DNA of 64,000 nt, from the NCBI GenBank assembly GCA_951406725.2, contig OX597829.1:23684001-23748000 (forward strand), given 5' to 3'. Positions 20,393-58,775 of this stretch are shown here, in pieces; position 1 is the stretch's first letter; each line of letters opens with the position of its first letter. A model generated the notes under the pieces. The model worked only from the letters and a program-made list of their open reading frames with translations, did no database searches and had not been told where the DNA came from. Position numbers and translations under genes: made by a program. Source of the stretch: Octopus vulgaris (taxonomy: Eukaryota).

Positions 20393-21411
20393 TCTATATA
20401 TATAAAACTGTAGTTGTGTGAGTGTCTGTCCCCTTCGATTTAGATTCCTAACTACTCCCAAATTTTGCGGTGCAGTTTAACCAAATTCGGGTATCTTATA
20501 GTCGTGATTCATATCGAGCCCGTCTGGGTATTAGCGCGCGTCTACGATGAGTGTACGATTTTAAAAATAATTTAACATCATTTTTTATTCCATTTTAATG
20601 CATATTTTTTCGTGTGTCGATGGCGGCGGAGTTGGCGTCCACGCTCACGCCTGCACCTGTGTTGCTTCTCCCCCTTCTTCCCTCCCTCGTGAAGCTGTGG
20701 GGAAGGGAGTGTAAGGAAATCAACGTCGTAATGCGTTGTGAAGGAGACCAGCGTTCTTTTAGAACAACGACTTCATGGCTTGAAGTCGCCAAAACAGAAA
20801 TCGCTAAAGAAGCTGAAACAGATCCACAAAAACGGCAAAAACCGCCACACAGGGCAGGTTTCCTGTGCAAACAATTTGCACAACCGAATGTTTTAGTTGT
20901 TGCACAAATCTTTATATATAAAAGTAAGGTTGTGTGTCTGTCTCCTACGATTTAGATTCCTAACTACTCCCACATTTTGCGGTGCAGTGTAACCAAAACC
21001 GGGTATCTTATAGTCGTGATTCATATCGAGCCCTTCTGGGTATTAGCGCGCGTCTACGATGAGTCTACGATTTTAAAAAAAATTTACCATCATTTTTTAT
21101 TCCATTTTAATGCATTTTTCGCTATTATATAAGGGAAGTAACTCTCTAAAAATGTCTACGATGATTCAACGATTAACAAAAAAATTACCATCATTTTTTT
21201 ATTCCATTTTAATGCATTTTTCGCTATTATATAAGGGAAGTAACTCTGTAAAAATGTCTACGATGAGTCAACGATTTAAAAAAGAAATTACTATCATTTT
21301 TTTATTCCATCTTTAATGCATTTTTTGCTATTTTTTTTGCTATAACTCACTAAAAATGCTTGTATAGTTATTTCCCTTACAAACCCGAGCAACGCCAGGC
21401 GATACTGCTAG
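20393..21411 (+). mobile_element. Composite non-autonomous Helitron H1 (two 5' ends, one 3' end)
   Basis: A|TC at 20393, second TCTTTATATATAAAA at 20909, hairpin + CTAG|T at 21411; internal ~100-bp tandem duplication. Confidence 0.85.
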
Positions 21412-21559: not shown

Positions 21560-21800
21560 ACTTTGTATATATACATTATATATACATATTTATATATAGA
21601 ACACACACACACACATACATTATATATACATATTTATATATAGAACACACACACACACACACATACATTATATATACATATTTATATATAGAACACACAC
21701 ACACACATACATTATATATACATATTTATATATAGAACACACACACACACATACATTATATATACATATATATATATAGAACACACACACACACACACAC
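21560..21800. repeat. ~40-bp minisatellite built from (CA)n/(TA)n, about 5 units
   Basis: ACATTATATATACATATTTATATATAGAA(CA)n repeated. Confidence 0.85.
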
Positions 21801-25339: not shown

Positions 25340-25555
25340 AATATTGGTTTCAAATTTTGACACGAGGCCAGCAATTTCGGGGAGGGGTATAAGTCGATTA
25401 CATCGACCCCAGTGCTCCATTAGTACTTATTTTATCACCCCTAAAAGAGATGAAAGGCAAAGTAGATCTCTACGGAACTTGTACTCAGAACGTAGAGACG
25501 GATAAAATGCCGCTAAGCATCCTACCCAGCGTGCATTCTGTCAGCTCACCACCTT
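25340..25555 (-). mobile_element. SINE C, old subfamily
   Basis: GATGAAAGGCAAAGT, CGACCCCAGTG, GGTTTCAAATTTTG 3' end. Confidence 0.7.
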
Positions 25556-25585: not shown

Positions 25586-26781
25586 AAAGGTGGGCACGGT
25601 CCCGTTAATCGAAAAGTTAACTTCGTTAACCGTTAATCCGTTAACCAAAAAGTTAACTTTGTAGCGTAAGCTTGAGGGAATTTCCTCGATCTCTGTTATA
25701 CATACATAAATACGGACATAGTAGATAACAGCTATCCTTCGGCCGCACTTTTGGACCCTGTTGTGTCCACCACTCTGATTGGTTGTTATTGGCGCAATTT
25801 GTCTTTTGCTCTACCGCGCGCCAATATGCAACCCAACCAGTCGCAGCCTTCAAATAATGTCACGTGAGACAGTCTCTTCTAAACCTCAGTTTGAGCCGAC
25901 TGCACCCTATAAAACTCTAGCTTCACATCTAATCGAGGTCTTTCGGTTCCAGACCTTTTAAGATCTAGCCACTGACCACATAGGACACAGCCAGTTCCAG
26001 CTACAACACAACAACAGCCACATGGAGACTCATCAACTTCGTCCAGCAGTAGTCGAGGACCTCCATCTCTGTCGTCACCATTCGTCCTAACGTCAACCCC
26101 TGTAGCGTGATACAAGAAGCCAGCGCCATCTTGTACGAGATCTCGCCAGCGGCCATTGCCATGTCCAAGACAAGAGCGAGATCTCGCCTACAACCATATT
26201 TTGCCATGCACGAGACCACAGCGAGGCTCTCGTGGGCAACATTTATTAAGGAAGTGTAATTGAGAAACCCGTTCTCTTTTCTCGCGTTGGCGTTCACGTT
26301 GAACAACACTGCAACCTAGCAGCTCACAGGGGATTCTCAACCCGCTCTAACTTGACCCGTTATCTCCAGAGGTAATGTAACTCTCGTGAACGGAGCTAAC
26401 GGACTACGCGCTGACATACAGATGGTTGCCGGGAGCAAGCCCCCATGAAATGAGAACTAAATAAACAACCATTGAATTGCATCCGCCTTTAAGGCCTCTT
26501 CTTCGAGTTCCAGAATCCCAAGACTACGAAAAATAATTGTAATGGGAGAAAGAGATACTCGACAGGTATCAGGAACCTTCTAGTTCCATTATAACTTCGA
26601 TAACCGTTAATCAGTTAATTATTTCCTAATGTAACGGAAGTTACCAATAAACCGTTAAAGTTAATTTTTACTATAGATAAAAAAAAATTTTTTTGCTCTA
26701 AATCCATCTAAAAACATCTTTAAAAAGTATCAAAATTATAAAATCCGTTAACTTCAATTCAATTGTTTGGTGCCCAAGTTT
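25586..26781. mobile_element. hAT-like MITE with GTTAAC/CCGTTA subterminal repeats, split by a solo LTR
   Basis: CAAAGGTGGGCAC ... GTGCCCAAGTTT termini; repeated AACCGTTAA motifs on both sides of the insertion. Confidence 0.6.
25660..26593 (+). mobile_element. 934-bp solo LTR (Gypsy-like)
   Basis: TGTAG...TTATA (CA>TA); 4-bp TSD ACTT at 25656-25659 and 26594-26597; AATAAA near 26460; relative at 10258-11095. Confidence 0.7.
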
Positions 26782-26794
26782 TCCCCCTTTTATA

Positions 26795-27410
26795 GGCGGC
26801 GAGCTGGCAGAAACGTTAGCACGCCGGGCGAAATGCTTAGCGGTATTTCGTCTGCCGTTACGTTCTGAGTTCAAATTCCGCCGAGGTCGACTTTGCCTTT
26901 CATCCTTTCGGGGTCGATAAATTAAGTACCAGTTACGCACTGGGGTCGATGTAATCGACTTAATACCTATGTCTGTCCTTGTTTGTCCCCTCTATGTTTA
27001 GCCCCTTGTTGGTAATAAAGAAATAGGTATTTCGTCTGCCGTTACGTTCCGAGTTCAAATTCCGCCGAGGTCGACTTTGCCTTTCATCCTTTGAATAAAT
27101 AAGAACCAGTTACGCACTGGGGTCGATATAATCGACTTAATCCGTTTGTCTGTCCTTGTTTGTCCCTCTATGTGTAGCCCCTTGTGGGCAGTAAAGAAAT
27201 AAGAAACATTAACACGCTGGGCAAAATACTAAGCGACATTTCACCCGTCTTTACGTTCTGGATCCAAATTCCGTAGAGGTCTACTTTGCCTTTCGTCCAT
27301 TTTGGGGGGCGATAAAATAAGTACTAGTTGAATACTGGGGGTCGATGTAATCGACTTACTGCTCTCACGAAATTCCTTGCCTTGTACCAAAATATGAAAC
27401 CAATATTAAC
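26795..27410 (+). mobile_element. SINE C tandem array: two young units followed by an old-subfamily body
   Basis: Head GGCGGCGAGCTGGCAGAA, B-box GAGTTCAAATTCC, core GTCGACTTTGCCTTTCATCCTTTCGGGGTCGAT; junction GAAATA|GGTATTTC. Confidence 0.9.
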
Positions 27411-27468
27411 CCATGTTCTGATGTATTTTTTATAAATCCTACAGTGTGTATAATTTTTTTTTCATTAG

Positions 27469-27599
27469 AATTAAGTATAGCTCTATATCCCAAAGTCATT
27501 ATATTAGGTCTGTTGTGTTTTTATTTATTGAGGTTTTCACTGGGACATTCCACCAGTACACCTTCTTATTAGGAGTGGCTATGGCTTCCACCATTCTGT
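27469..27599 (+). CDS. Candidate exon of an unidentified membrane protein
   Basis: TTTTTTTTTCATTAG acceptor; open frame IKYSS..VFTGTFHQYTFLLGVAMASTIL; GTATGT donor supplied by the microsatellite. Confidence 0.3.
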
Positions 27600-32785: not shown

Positions 32786-33013
32786 TATTTCTTTACCCAC
32801 AAGGGGCTAAACACAGAAGGGACAAACAAGGACAGACAAACGGATTAAGTCGATTATATCGACCCCAGTGCGTAAATGGTACTTATTTAATCGACCCCGA
32901 AAGGATGAAAGGCAAAGTCGACCTCGGCGGTATTTGAACTCAGAACGTAACGACAGACGAAATACGGCTACGCATTTCGCCCGGCGTGCTAACGATTCTG
33001 CCAGCTCGCCGCC
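32786..33013 (-). mobile_element. SINE C monomer with 9-bp TSD
   Basis: TTAAGTACC at 32777-32785 and 33014-33022. Confidence 0.9.
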
Positions 33014-40145: not shown

Positions 40146-41280
40146 CATCATCATCATCATCATCATTTAACGTCCGCTTTCCATGCTAGCATGGGTTGGA
40201 CGGTTCAACTGGGGTCTGGGGAGCCCGATGGCTGCACCAGGCCAGTCAGATCTGGCAGTGTTTCTACAGCTGGATGCCCTTCCTAACGCCAACCACTCCG
40301 AGAGTGTAGTGGGTGATTTTATGTGCCACTGACACAGGTGCCAGACGAGGCTGGCGAACGGCCACGCTCGGATGGTGTTTTTTATGTGCCACCGACACAG
40401 GTGCCAGACGAGGCTGGCAGACGGCCACGCTCGGATGGTGTTTTTATGTGCCACCGACACAGGTGCCAGATGAGGCTGGCGAACGGCCACGATCGGATGG
40501 TGTTTGTTACGTGCCCACAGCACGGAGGCCAGTCGATGCGGTACTGACTACGGCCACGTTCGGATGGTTTTCTTGTGTGCCACCGGCACCGGTACCACAA
40601 AGATACAAATTCCATTGATGTTCATCTATTTTGATTTGTTTTGATTTTAACTTGCCTCAACAGGTCTTTACAAGTGTCACAAGAAGGGAGGTATGCACAG
40701 GTGGACTGACTACGTCCCAGGTAGGGGCCACGGGTTATGGCCTGACTAGTCTTGCCGGGTCTTCGGATGGTGTTTTTATGTGCCACCGACACAGGTGCCA
40801 GATGAGGCTGGCGAACGGCCACGATCGGATGGTGTTTGTTACGTGCCCACAGCACGGAGACCAGTCGATGCGGTACTGGCTACGGCCACGTTCGGATGGT
40901 TTTCTTGTGTGCCACCGGCACTGGTACCACAAAGATACAAATTCCATTGATGTTCATCTATTTTGATTTGTTTTGATTTTCACTTGCCTCAACAGGTCTT
41001 CACAAGTGTCACAAGAAGGAAGGTATGCACAGGTGGACTGACTACGTCCCAGGTAGGGGCCACGGGTTATGGCCTGACTAGTCTTGCCGGGTCTTCGGAT
41101 GGTGTTTTTATGTGCCACCGACACAGGTGCCAGATGAGGCTGGCGAACGGCCACGATCGGATGGTGTTTGTTATGTGCCCACAGCACGATGGCCAGTCGG
41201 TGCGGTACTGGCTACGACCACGTTCGGATGGTTTTCTTGTGTGCCACCGGCACTGGTACCACAAAGATACAAATTCCATT
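40146..41280 (-). mobile_element. Family D retroposon with ~62-bp subrepeats and a 332-bp tandem repeat (~2.6 copies)
   Basis: (CAT)n tail at 40146; TCGGATGGTGTTTTTATGTGCC at 40431, 40763, 41095. Confidence 0.85.
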
Positions 41281-45308: not shown

Positions 45309-45612
45309 TGTGTGTGTGCGTGTGCGCGTGCATGTGTGCGTGCGCGCGTGCATGTGTGCGTGTGTTTGTCTTCGATCGCCGCTTGACAACCGGTGTTTGT
45401 TTGTAGACGTTCCCGTAACGTCTTGGTTCGGCAAATGAGACCGGCGGAATAGGTACTACTGGAATCAATTTGTTCAAACCAAACGCTTCAAAGTGATGCC
45501 CCAGTATGGCCTCAGTCCAATAACTGAAACAAAATGAAAAAGGTAAAAGATAAGGAAACAAGAAATTCTATCACAGTTACATCTGAAGTGGTGGAGGTGA
45601 TGGTAATGGTAA

Positions 45613-45835
45613 GCTGGCAGAATCGTTAGCACGCTGGGCGAAATGCGTAGCCGTATTTCGTCTGCCGCTACGTTCTGAGTTCAAATTCCGCCGAGGTCGA
45701 CTTTGCCTTTCATCCTTTCGGGGTCGATTAAATAAGTACCAGTTACGCACTGGGGTCGATGTAATCGACTTAATACCTATGTCTGTCCTTGTTTGTCCCC
45801 TCTGTGTTTAGCCCCTTGTGGGTAATAAAGAAATA
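45613..45835 (+). mobile_element. SINE C monomer with 11-bp TSD
   Basis: GGTAATGGTAA at 45602-45612 and 45836-45846. Confidence 0.88.
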
Positions 45836-49949: not shown

Positions 49950-50195
49950 AGGCGGCGGACTGGGAGAATTATGCACATCGGACAAAATGCTTAGCGGCAT
50001 TTCGTCCGTCTTTATGTTATGAGTTCAAATTCTACCGTGGTCGTCTTTGCCTTTCATCCTTTTGGGGGTCGATAAAATAATTACCAGTTGAGCACTGGGG
50101 TCGCTGTAATCGCCTTACTCTCACCACCACTACCACCACCACCACCACCATCGTTCCACGATATTGCTGGCTTGGGGTAAAATTTGAAATCATTA
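49950..50195 (+). mobile_element. SINE C, old subfamily
   Basis: GAGTTCAAATTC, TTTGCCTTTCATCCTTT, AAAATTTGAAA 3' end. Confidence 0.75.
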
Positions 50196-51289
50196 CATAT
50201 TTGTTGTGGATAATTAATGACCGCTACTGTTGGATTTGCCTTCGATTTAAGATGTCTGGAAATAAATTATCAAGTAGATCTGAAGGCGGCAGCGCAAAAA
50301 GGAACGGTAAAAAGATCACGCGGTATATTAAACTTGAAGTTTTAAAAATACTTGATGCGGAAGTAAAACAAAGTTACACTGCTAAAACATTAAATCTTGC
50401 AACGTCTACAGAATGAAAGAACACGTGGCAACCAGTGAGAAAATTATGTCAAGTGCTCAAGAAGCTACTCCGCTAATTGACCGGATCCATACTTTCCCAT
50501 AGATCTAATATAACGCTTAAAGCGGAACGACATTTGAGTGTATGAATCGAGCATCAGAGAATTGGTGTAATGTGCCGATAAACATAATGGTTTAAAAAAA
50601 AAAGAGCGAAAAGTTTATATGACAATTTGCAGGGAAAGGAAAGTGAAACTTCCAATGAAAAAAATACTTTTTGGCTAGCAAAAGGCTGGTTGGAAAGGTT
50701 TAAGTAGGGAATGAATTTGCACAACATGGAAATGATTGATGGCGCTGCAAGTGCTGATACAGTGACTGCTGCTAATTATCCTGAGTAGTAGAAGAAAATG
50801 ATTGTTGAAGGGGGCTACATACCAGAGCAAGTATATAATGTCGATTAAACGGCACTTTTCTGAAAGCACATGCCTGCTAGGACTTATTTCTCGAGAAGAA
50901 AAAGCAACACCAGGATTCAAAGCTTCTAAATTTCGTCTGAACTTCCTATAGGAAGAAATGCTGTTGGTAATATGAAATTAAAGCCCCTACACATGCATCA
51001 CTCTGAAAATTCAAAGGTTTTTCAATAGTTTACACAATTTCATCTATCTTTGGTGTTCAAATAGGGAGGCGTGGATGGCTAAGAACCTTTTCAAAGATTG
51101 GTACATTGCCAGACACAATACTTCCAACAAAGCATTGCATTTTTTTTTTGGCAATGCACTGAACCACCCAGCGAACTTAGATGACCATTCTGCTAAGGTG
51201 AGAGTAGAATATATCCCCAAGAATGCAACTTCTTTGCTCCAGTCAATGGATCATGGAATGATAGCTAACTTCAAGGTATATTAAAACTT

Positions 51290-54324: not shown

Positions 54325-54659
54325 CACACACACACATATATATATATATAGAGAGAGAGAGGTGGGGGGAGATGTATGTATATATCACCATAGCCGTCAC
54401 CTGCAAGCAATTATGATCTGGTAAGTGAAACGTTCAGGATATGGCAACTTCTAGGCTGCATCATATTAGACTGATTCTCATTATTCAACTGAACAACTGG
54501 AACAACGAGAAAAGAAGAGTTTTGCTCAGGACTGCAATGCGTTGCCCTAGCTAGGAACTGAACCCATGAGCGTATGTATTTATAAAACATATACAAACAC
54601 ATTGCAAACATAATAGGCCGAATACAATTGTTTGGAACTAGCATGAAAAAGTATGTACC

Positions 54660-55257
54660 TATTTCTTTACTACCCACAAGGAGCTAAACACAGAGAGGAC
54701 AAACAAGGACAGACAAACGGATTAAGTCGATTATATCGACCCCAGGTGTAACTGGTACCTATTTAATCGACCCCGAAAGGATGAAAGGTAAAGTCGACCT
54801 CGGCGGAATTTGAACTCAGAACGTAACGGCAGACGAAATACCTATTTCTTTACTACCCACAAGGGGCTAAACACAGAGAGGACAAACAAGGACAGACAAA
54901 CGGATGAAGTCGATTATATCGACCCCAGTGCGTAACTGGTACCTATTTAATCGACCCCGAAAGGATGAAAGGTAAAGTCAACCTCGGCGGAATTTGAACT
55001 CAGAACGTAACGGCAGACGAAATACCTATTTCTTTACTACCCACAAGGGGCTAAACACAGAGAGGACAAACAAGGACAGACAAACGGATGAAGTCGATTA
55101 TATCGACCCGAGTGCGTAACTGGTACTTATTTCATCGATCCCGAAAGGATGAAAGGTAAAGTCGATCTCGGCGGAATTTGAACTCAGAACGTAACGGCAG
55201 ACGAAATACGGCTACGCATTTCGCCCGGCGTGCTAACGTTTCTGCCAGCTCGCCGCC
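54660..55257 (-). mobile_element. SINE C trimer (183-184-bp period, one head)
   Basis: TACCTATTTCTTTACTACCC at 54656, 54839, 55023; flanking ATGAAAAAGTATGTA duplication. Confidence 0.92.
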
Positions 55258-56221
55258 ATATGAAAAAGTATGTAAAAAGTGGTCAGTTGTTTTACTGAAG
55301 TGAATACCTCTTCGTAAATCAAAGAGGAATATGATAACTATGGACAACTACTTCAAAACCCTCATGCTCTATACCCAGATTATAAAGCCACATAAATACC
55401 AGGTACTTGGTTTTGCGAGTAAATACCTAAATGATAATCTTGAAAAACCAGGCTTTTTGTTTTTTTTAAAAAAAGGGAAATCAACCGGTTAACACGCGCT
55501 TTACAAATACGTACAATCCGTAAATGGAATTTTAAAAATTTGTGCAAGACTCTTAAGTTTAAAATGTGACATTTTTCCAATAAAGGAGCTTTGTAGCTTT
55601 ATTAGAAACCAGTTCCTTCCTTACAGGAAGACCTCAAATAATAAAAAGTAGAAGGGGACATGTGTGTGTGTGTGTGTGTGAGTGTGTGTACGCGCGCGCA
55701 CACACACACAGCTTAATTTAATAGAGCAACGGAATACTCAATACATTCTGTAAAGTATAGATAATTAAAATTAGTCACTTGACGAAATCATCTGACCGAA
55801 TTAATAGGAATAGTAATCCCTTCTACTAAAGGCAAAAAGGCCTGAAGTTTGGGAAGAGGGGGCTAGTTGATTCCATCGATCCCAGTGCATAATTAGTACT
55901 TTCAGTTTCCGTCTACCAAATCCACTCACAAGGCTTTGGTCGGCCCGAAGCTATAGCAGAAGACACTTGCCCAAGGTACCATGCAGTGGGATTGAACACT
56001 GAACAGTGTAGTTCGGAAGCAAGCTTCTTACTACACAGCCATGCCGGCACTTATTCGATGTTTAAAAAAGTCTCATTATAGCTTTATAATTAAACAGGAT
56101 TTGTATTTTAAAAAATTGTTGAAATATTTTGATTACTATAGAAGTATAACCATTTACTGCACATAAATTCTTATGTGGAACCGCGAGGGCCATGTGGACC
56201 CTGGTTAAGAACCACTGATCT

Positions 56222-57709: not shown

Positions 57710-58520
57710 GGCGGTGAGCTGGCAGAATCGTTAGCACACCGTGCAAAATGCTTAGCGGTATTTCGTCTGCCGGCGAGCTGGCAGAAACGTTAGCACGCCG
57801 GGCGAAATTTCGTCTGCCGCTACGTTCTGAGTTCAAATTCCGCCGAGGTCGACTTTGCCTTTCATCCTTTCGGGGTCGATTAAATAAGTACCAGTTAAGC
57901 ACTGGGGTCGATATAATGGACTTAATCCGTTTGTCTGTCCTTGTTTATCCTCTCTGTGTTTAGCCCCTTGTGGGTATTAAAGAAATAGGTATTTCGTCTG
58001 CCGAAGTCGACTTTGCCTTTCATCCTTTCGGGGTCGATAAATTAAGTACTAGTTACGCACTGGGGTCGATGTATTCCACTGAATACCTATGTCTGTCCTT
58101 GTTTGTCCCCTCTATGTTTAGCCCTTTGTGGGTAATAAAGAAATAGGTATTTCGTCTGCCATTACATTCTAAGTTCAAATTCTGCCGAGGTCGACTTTAC
58201 CTTTCATCCTTTCGGGGTCGGTAAATTAAGTATCAGTTACGCACAGGGGTCGATGTAAGTCCTTTGGCTGTTTTTGTTTGTTCCCTCTATGTTTAGCACC
58301 TTGTGGTCAATAAAGAGATAAGAATCATTAGCACATCGGGCAAAATGTTTGGCGGCATTCCATCCGTCTTTACGTTTTTGAGTTCAAAATTCTGTTCAGG
58401 TCGACTTAGCTTTTCTTCCTTTCGGATAGATAAATGTGTACCAGTTGACCGCTGGGATCGTTGTAAACAAGTATCCTGCTCCCCTGAAATCGCTGGCCTT
58501 CTGTTAAAATTTGAAACCAA
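57710..58520 (+). mobile_element. Nested SINE C cluster
   Basis: Headed copy 57772-57987 flanked by GGTATTTCGTCTGCC duplications; further units; ends in an old-subfamily body. Confidence 0.9.
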
Positions 58521-58775
58521 TATTTAGACATGTAGATTCCTCTCACCACTCCGATTTCCACACATTTTAAGAACGGTTTTATTGCCATTGTTGGTTTACC
58601 TTCTGACTCACTGATTCCTACGTATCTTACAAATAAAGAATTTCAAGAATAAATGTTAATCCTTTATGAAAAATTCAATTATGTTCCAGAAAAACGCATA
58701 TATCTTCTTCAAGGACAATTCTGTATAGCTACTTTTATATACATACAAGCCTATATGTACACGCATGTATGTACA

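Follow-up and report, generated by a model that had tools for sequence, protein, structure and literature searches.

Arrays built of short interspersed elements (SINEs) have been reported for the Dip SINE of the Gobi jerboa, which forms multimers, for squamates, in which SINE-derived satellites occur (PMC10702118), and for Scapharca broughtonii, in which arrays have the form TSD1-(SINE)n-TSD1 (PMC11481361). The accessible sections of these papers attribute the arrays mainly to unequal recombination. Nesting of a non-LTR element in its own copies is known from the Zepp LINE clusters of Coccomyxa C-169, described in the available part of PMC3446292 as an autonomous element with about one cluster per chromosome. 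In LINEs and SINEs the 3' end of the RNA overlaps the start of the target and probably pairs with it, according to excerpts of PMC6007223, and joining of the 5' junction by annealing is described for LINEs in excerpts of PMC4245944.

The locus analysed here (57710-58525) lies in a 64 kb window, the whole stretch of DNA that was analysed, which is microsatellite-rich animal DNA. Like the Dip, squamate and Scapharca arrays, as far as those sections describe them, it consists of head-to-tail partial SINE units of which the first is longer, and a trimer elsewhere in the window resembles the S. broughtonii arrays in that all of its units lie inside one target site duplication (TSD). It differs from them in that the unit boundary is the insertion motif and that units of mixed ages and subtypes are stacked. 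As in the CR1/L2/RTE-type elements, for which the excerpt of PMC6007223 cites Ichiyanagi and Okada, the 3' end of the RNA would overlap the start of the target and bias the choice of site, and the 5' junction carries short microhomology as in the annealing-type joining of PMC4245944. However, the CR1/L2/RTE cases use microsatellite-like tails, whereas here the pairing sequence would copy a site inside the element's own promoter. Zepp is likewise a non-LTR element nested in its own copies, but the octopus element is a non-coding SINE and also inserts in unique DNA; insertion at fixed internal positions was found (26809 and 26842, counted as contigs, not events), while confinement to its own copies was not. 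Neither nested or tandem SINEs nor 3' pairing is new; novelty may lie in an RNA end that refers to the element itself.

The SINE family and its copies in the window

The element is a tRNA-like SINE of ~230 bp. It is present as two families with a common head and body and different tails, the young tail ending in AAAGAAATA and the old tail in GAAACCAATATT. The octopus tRNA/CORE SINEs OR1 and OR2, which the SINE of the window may resemble, have a tRNA-like head and a central body in common and differ in their tails. Ten young units (~230 bp or less) were found at five loci, together with four old-tail copies and one old-type fragment, in a window that also contains 49 open reading frames of at least 120 aa. 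The copies outside the main locus that are needed below are the following:

26795..27407, + strand: second array; head with a subtype-B unit that ends at 27025; subtype-A unit at 27026-27201, beginning with GGTA; old-tail SINE at 27202-27407, from AGAAAC
54660..55257, - strand: trimer; head of the CCGTA type; GGTA at the joints of the three units; a single 15-bp duplication on the outside (55260-55274 and 54643-54657)
32786..33013, - strand: monomer with CCGTA head and a 9-bp duplication beginning GGTA
45612..45835, + strand: monomer with CCGTA head and subtype-B tail; 10-11-bp duplication beginning GGTA within a GGT-rich simple repeat (less certain)
25340..25555, - strand: old-tail copy, uninterrupted
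49950..50200, + strand: old-tail copy with uninterrupted head and a CAC repeat expanded in the tail

The family has a high copy number, with 620,823 and 303,881 contigs matched in two relatives. Pattern scans for the family gave no match in metagenome contigs (0 and 0) or prokaryote genomes, and none of the 54 loci with chance 18-mer matches (51 in prokaryote genomes, 3 in viral contigs) extended beyond 22 bp against the SINE. The A-like and B-like motifs were ~64 bp apart in intact heads and 52 bp apart in the guest copy described below. In the predicted fold of the head, 5' GGCGG pairs with CCGCC, and a predicted 13-bp hairpin (z = -2.77 for the head) has GGTA at the 3' edge of its loop. ARAGORN and Rfam found no tRNA match on the window sequence. 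Rfam gave no match at gathering over the window and none at E ≤ 10 over 26700-27500, and a hammerhead or retrozyme-type origin of the arrays was rejected on this result.

TSDs in the window were 9, 10-11, 15 and 16 bp long, and none was found for three older SINE loci. The first base of the duplication was G in three of four cases and T in one, a small sample; SINEs mobilised by RTE elements are marked by a TSD with T as its first base ~10 nt downstream of a T stretch, and the available part of PMC6007223 ties this base to the RNA tail. OR2 has been named a CORE-SINE in excerpts of PMC4758252 and PMC5804259. Self-nesting of this SINE family or of OR1/OR2 was not found in the main texts searched, which did not include the first descriptions of OR1/OR2 or any Repbase or Dfam entry; the words "nested" and "target" had no occurrence in the main text of PMC13282606, and three longer motifs of the family were not found in literature text among the matches listed.

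Architecture of the locus at 57710-58525

The locus contains a headed copy and a series of headless units between the head of an older host and the remainder of an old SINE:

57710..57756, + strand: host head with an A-box-like motif at 57720; 5/36 mismatches to the guest head, which is the younger of the two
57757..57772, + strand: putative TSD of 16 bp, left copy, beginning at the GGTA site, exact 16/16
57773..57987, + strand: headed guest SINE, subtype A; A box at 57779, B box at 57831; private substitutions 3/131
57988..58003, + strand: right copy of the 16-bp duplication, which is the start of unit 2, exact 16/16
57988..58145, + strand: unit 2, subtype B, headless; private substitutions 6/131; 26-bp deletion (B box) from the end of the 16-mer
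58146..58320, + strand: unit 3, headless, GGTA start; private substitutions 11/122
58321..58525, + strand: what is left of an old SINE that has the other tail; entry point AGAATC; 37/146 against other old copies

The preliminary description had placed a headed copy between two duplicates of the family's own head, and this was borne out: GGTATTTCGTCTGCCG, which is the family's own head sequence, occurs exactly (16/16) on both sides of the guest. The duplicated 16-mer sits between the A-box-like motif at 57720 and the B-box-like motifs at 57831 and 58173. The first 4 nt of the head are absent from the guest, and the letters CG are common to the guest and the end of the left copy. The host head and the old-tail remainder at 58321 have AATC, CACA and GCAAAATG in common. 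As a flanking duplication of the whole array, only a 7-bp match was found.

Two deletions were identified. The one in unit 2, which removes 26 bp (GCCG..GCCG) and the B box, lies directly after the right 16-mer and starts at the TSD end with a 4-nt ambiguity, so it may belong to the same event as the nesting, a "target deletion" variant of it. The guest head has a 12-bp deletion near 57808 (window 57800-57812) that takes out the predicted hairpin loop and the GGTA site; a perfect palindrome without a GGTA site remains there.

Evidence for a nested insertion

Comparison of the copies indicates that the segment at 57773-57987 is very probably a real nested insertion. The guest differed from the next unit at 18/145 positions and from subtype-A copies elsewhere at only 8-11/145, and its head differed from the heads of other copies at 0-1/36 and from the host head at 5/36. 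A simple local duplication is excluded here, because the two heads are so far apart and the guest is nearer to distant copies than to its neighbor. The 16-bp duplication is at the upper end of the TSD lengths in the window.

Sequential insertion at one head site predicts a 5' to 3' rise in decay, which was observed: private substitutions increased along the array from the guest to unit 3 (Fisher p = 0.026) and on to the old host, and in the second array the corresponding values were 1/131, 3/123 and 19/143. Neighboring steps of this gradient, however, were not significant (p = 0.21, 0.50 and 0.36). With its differing subtypes, its decay rising along the array and head-start joints at +15/+16 that recur in a relative, the locus agrees with the earlier claim that the SINE inserted here into a copy of its own family. 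Because the right 16-mer is an ordinary start of an array unit, the duplication is fixed by its left end alone, which makes it good but not stand-alone evidence. A tail-to-GGTA junction was present in 5 of the 10 young tails of the window, four of these without a headed left partner. When the locus at 57710-58525 was left out, the count of copies nested at GGTA fell to 1/3, which was not significant (p about 0.06-0.14).

The trimer and array growth

That new copies build arrays, as first proposed, agreed with the locus at 57710-58525, but the trimer at 54660-55257 did not consist entirely of fresh insertions: a single TSD encloses it, and its middle unit is a mosaic. The 5' half of that unit matches unit 3 (1/94) and its 3' half matches unit 1 (1/89), while units 1 and 3 differ from each other at 4/94 positions in the 5' half and 5/89 in the 3' half. 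Unequal crossing-over or template slippage would give such a mosaic unit within a single outer TSD. Private substitutions of the three units were 5, 3 and 3, with no age gradient. A proposal that private variants are common to all three units was weakened, since units 1 and 3 differ at 8/144 positions, like copies of other loci. Arrays in the window have two or three young units and only the trimer is homogeneous (4-8/145), so they are not the long, homogenised arrays of SINE-derived satellites.

Junction hotspots in related genomes

Joints were mapped in four sequencing runs on one reference unit (26765-27025 of the window), with organisms B and E as relatives. The joint counts that follow are from the best-supported 15 of 1148 joints and are contigs of the relatives, not independent events, and copying of arrays inflates them. 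The tail was joined to GGTA (26842) in 35 contigs of B and 2 of E, and to AGAA (26809) in 20 and 11. A joint to 26859 was found in 8 and 2 contigs, and the 17 letters in between resemble a GGTA 17-mer that has decayed. There was no other internal target among these 15 joints. The tail was joined to a head start with spacers in 42 and 10 contigs. In organism B, the head start followed 15-16 bp after GGTA at the joints 26856->26794 (5 contigs; 0 in X11) and 26857->26794, and these represent separate events since they differ in their extra letters (CGA and GAA).

Loose ends in B gave a similar picture: the tail stood before GGTA in 1336 contigs, compared with 3584 at the natural 5' end (27%). Because only 7 of the 378 GGTA sites in the window are of the head type, these junctions exceed the random-GGTA expectation more than tenfold. 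Uniform nesting along the element, or nesting at the level of random GGTA sites, had been named as grounds for discarding the idea; neither was seen, and the junctions in the relatives' contigs clustered at GGTA and AGAA. The GGTA preference first described was thus upheld as clustering at a fixed position, but the AGAA hotspot had been missed, and a pure target motif does not agree with the trimer, whose target is TTTA. Heads with GCG had been expected to be hit more often than those with GCC; 2/2 of the former and 1/3 of the latter lead arrays, which is in the predicted direction, but the numbers are too few and are confounded, since the RNA can supply the G.

Of the 12.9 million raw reads in each of the species-labelled runs X22 and X23, 20 and 225 were matched. 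This is few for a family that makes up ~3% of the window, and the reads may have been filtered or the runs mislabelled. The GGTA joint occurred in one of these sparse reads, and a partly tail-like loose end was found there in five. Nine X23 reads with loose ends before 26923 join the tail end to the AAATAAGTACC site of the body, possibly a third hotspot that resembles the tail end, and units 2 and 3 of the trimer have a GGTA variant at their AAATAAGTACC site.

Other joints were also observed. Those at 26820->26860 and 26823->26881 are head deletions of 39 and 57 bp that remove the hairpin and GGTA. Their high depth (1258 and 895 in X5, 641 and 54 in X11) suggests amplified deletion variants. 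Opposite-strand joints at 26794-26858/62/63 occurred in 45 and 36 contigs (22/11 and 16/11 for neighbors); here a head stands beside an inverted, probably old-type copy, and the two may be ordinary neighbors.

Origin of the GGTA bias

The sequence comparisons point to the 3' end of the element's RNA, and not to a pure target motif, as the likely source of the GGTA bias. GGTA follows each of the three tails that border on unique DNA, with 5-6 of 7 letters matching the head site. At the outer junction of the trimer the left target reads TTTA and the junction GGTA, so the GG was supplied by the element. In subtype B, the first letters of the tail and the junction are reverse complements of each other (9/9 in the inner part, 12/14 overall), and an exact complementary 9-mer arose in only 14 of 20000 shuffles. 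The predicted tail-junction duplex has -15.0 kcal/mol in subtype B and -3.6 to -5.6 kcal/mol in subtype A. In unit 2 the tail start at 58082-58094 is complementary to the junction at 58139-58151 (92%), and the stem arms of the second array lie at 26957-26974 and 27019-27036. The majority state of organism E would pair at 7/9 positions, and two subtype-B changes mend both mismatches; the share of subtype-B letters follows the frequency of the junction, at ~35-39% of the depth in B (junction common) and 3-8% in E (junction rare).

Several observations weigh against this reading. The subtype-B stem was found after the fact and in two species only, subtype-A copies without a strong stem also end in GGTA, and the subtype-B letters at 26965 and 26969 were seen in 0/27 X23 reads, though 4 of the 10 window units are B-like. 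The stem may have arisen through selection on an RNA stem or through hairpin-templated mutation, and the subtype-B source copy presumably carried GGTATT past its tail. The 8-mer GGTATTTC occurred seven times in SINEs and once outside them in the 64 kb. Taken with the tail complementarity, the element-derived GG indicates that the "GGTA preference" is likely pairing of the RNA end with the target, and we infer a bias encoded in the RNA for which the family's own head would be the best genomic match.

A proposed mechanism for self-nesting

On balance, the guest appears to have been placed by target-primed reverse transcription into an older head of its own family, leaving a 16-bp TSD, with the site revisited through RNA-end pairing. 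The SINE RNA is predicted to continue past the tail AAAGAAAUA into GGUA(UUU), and this extension would pair with matching nicked DNA, of which the element's own head is the best match. A founder copy may have landed at GGTA, probably in a head, whereby its transcript would have gained the 3' extension and passed the site bias to daughter copies; the AGAA hotspot would follow from an analogous AAGAAA end. Most nested insertions leave no second head; annealing of the cDNA to the homologous head of the host, or later recombination between the two heads, is the likely reason. Arrays may grow further by local duplication or be copied whole.

A more far-reaching scheme is doubtful, although possible. 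In it the founder nesting would have written into the RNA a heritable address that directs the family to its own promoter region, with 3' GGUAUUU(CG) as a priming guide and the LINE enzyme unchanged. In the lineage concerned, a subtype with a fold-back tail and a head variant in which the site is destroyed would have spread, and nested composites would have become source genes.

If the model of the RNA end is true, this is a natural, non-coding retroposon of very high copy number that retargets itself by a few acquired 3' bases, and the priming role of RNA-DNA pairing can be tested across species with and without the GGTA junction; the case would also show how interspersed SINEs seed arrays and satellites. 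If there is only ordinary nesting and duplication, the locus is a neat but ordinary example. In practice, array units that lack a head ought not to enter counts or datings as separate insertions.

Alternative explanations

It is unlikely that the endonuclease of a partner LINE itself prefers GGTA and AGAA or the head hairpin, with the RNA end being incidental. Two of the three unique targets do carry GGTA on the left, for which such a motif would account too, and GGTA lies at the 3' loop edge of the predicted hairpin, exactly the loop that the guest has lost. An enzyme preference is at odds, however, with the junction of the trimer and with a GGTA hotspot that is common in B and rare in E, whereas AGAA is common in both; it leaves the subtype-B complementarity unexplained, and no partner LINE was found in the window among the matches of the young tail, which are SINE copies only. 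That the arrays formed in one event is quite unlikely as a general account. Here cDNA ending in AAATACC would anneal to GGUAUUU of another RNA, or a multimeric RNA would be copied, and the 16-mer would be the jump point. L1 ORF2p makes concatemers in vitro according to the accessible part of PMC10830420, and the trimer, which has just one duplication around it and neither an age gradient nor a T4 run, fits this route, which probably accounts for some arrays. The units at 57710-58525, by contrast, differ in age and subtype next to a host remainder that is ~25% decayed, and head-start joints recur at +15/+16, a TSD-like distance. Local DNA duplication alone, with the head duplicated by slippage, the units by unequal crossing-over and no nested retrotransposition, is highly improbable. 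The mosaic middle unit of the trimer and the 26-bp and 12-bp deletions, which mark the main locus as prone to rearrangement, would suit it, but the difference between the two heads and the closeness of the guest to copies elsewhere contradict it at 57710-58525, while for the trimer it remains valid.

The preliminary description had also held that new copies disrupt older Pol III promoters as a self-limiting or safe-harbor strategy. Selected self-targeting of this kind is very unlikely. In its favor, nested insertions fall in DNA that is already inert, and the CCGTA head, in which GGTA is destroyed, makes up 17.5% of the depth in B and 0.6% in E, as expected if insertion is costly to source copies; this rise fits escape and fits hitch-hiking in a young subfamily equally well. 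Disruption of older promoters is not supported, since an A box and at least one B box survive in each of the three arrays, and with one such promoter kept at the locus no adaptive self-limiting strategy is needed. In a seamless nested insertion the host A box is paired with the guest B box at normal spacing, so that no promoter is gained by nesting, none is visibly lost, and sources may arise from it. One nested left junction in a relative had a depth of 977, compared with 40-61 for the long contigs listed, which suggests ~20 copies of it and runs counter to self-limitation. Three of the five loci with young SINEs end in unique DNA with TSDs, so self-targeting is far from exclusive. Return to the same head site through the RNA end, which we prefer, calls for no such strategy. 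T4 terminator runs were absent from the young units except the one labelled F_u3, and read-through multimers are therefore possible.

Other observations

CpG decay of GGTATTTCG (head 26842-26850) would place a T4 run, which could act as a Pol III terminator, just after a nested guest, and decayed GGTATTTCG forms were present in consensus lines of loose ends. Among the X23 reads with loose ends before 26972, 68 of the 225 matched reads join the tail plus G(C)TATTTCGTCTG straight to the tail start. The resulting short unit, without the central part of the SINE, is possibly repeated as a SINE-derived minisatellite. A different repeat family at 40317-41280 of the window is tandem, with periods of 63 bp (4.4 copies) and 332 bp (2.6 copies, 97%), and further tandem repeats were found at 21052-21332 (102 bp, 2.7 copies) and 21571-21799 (44 bp, 5.1 copies).
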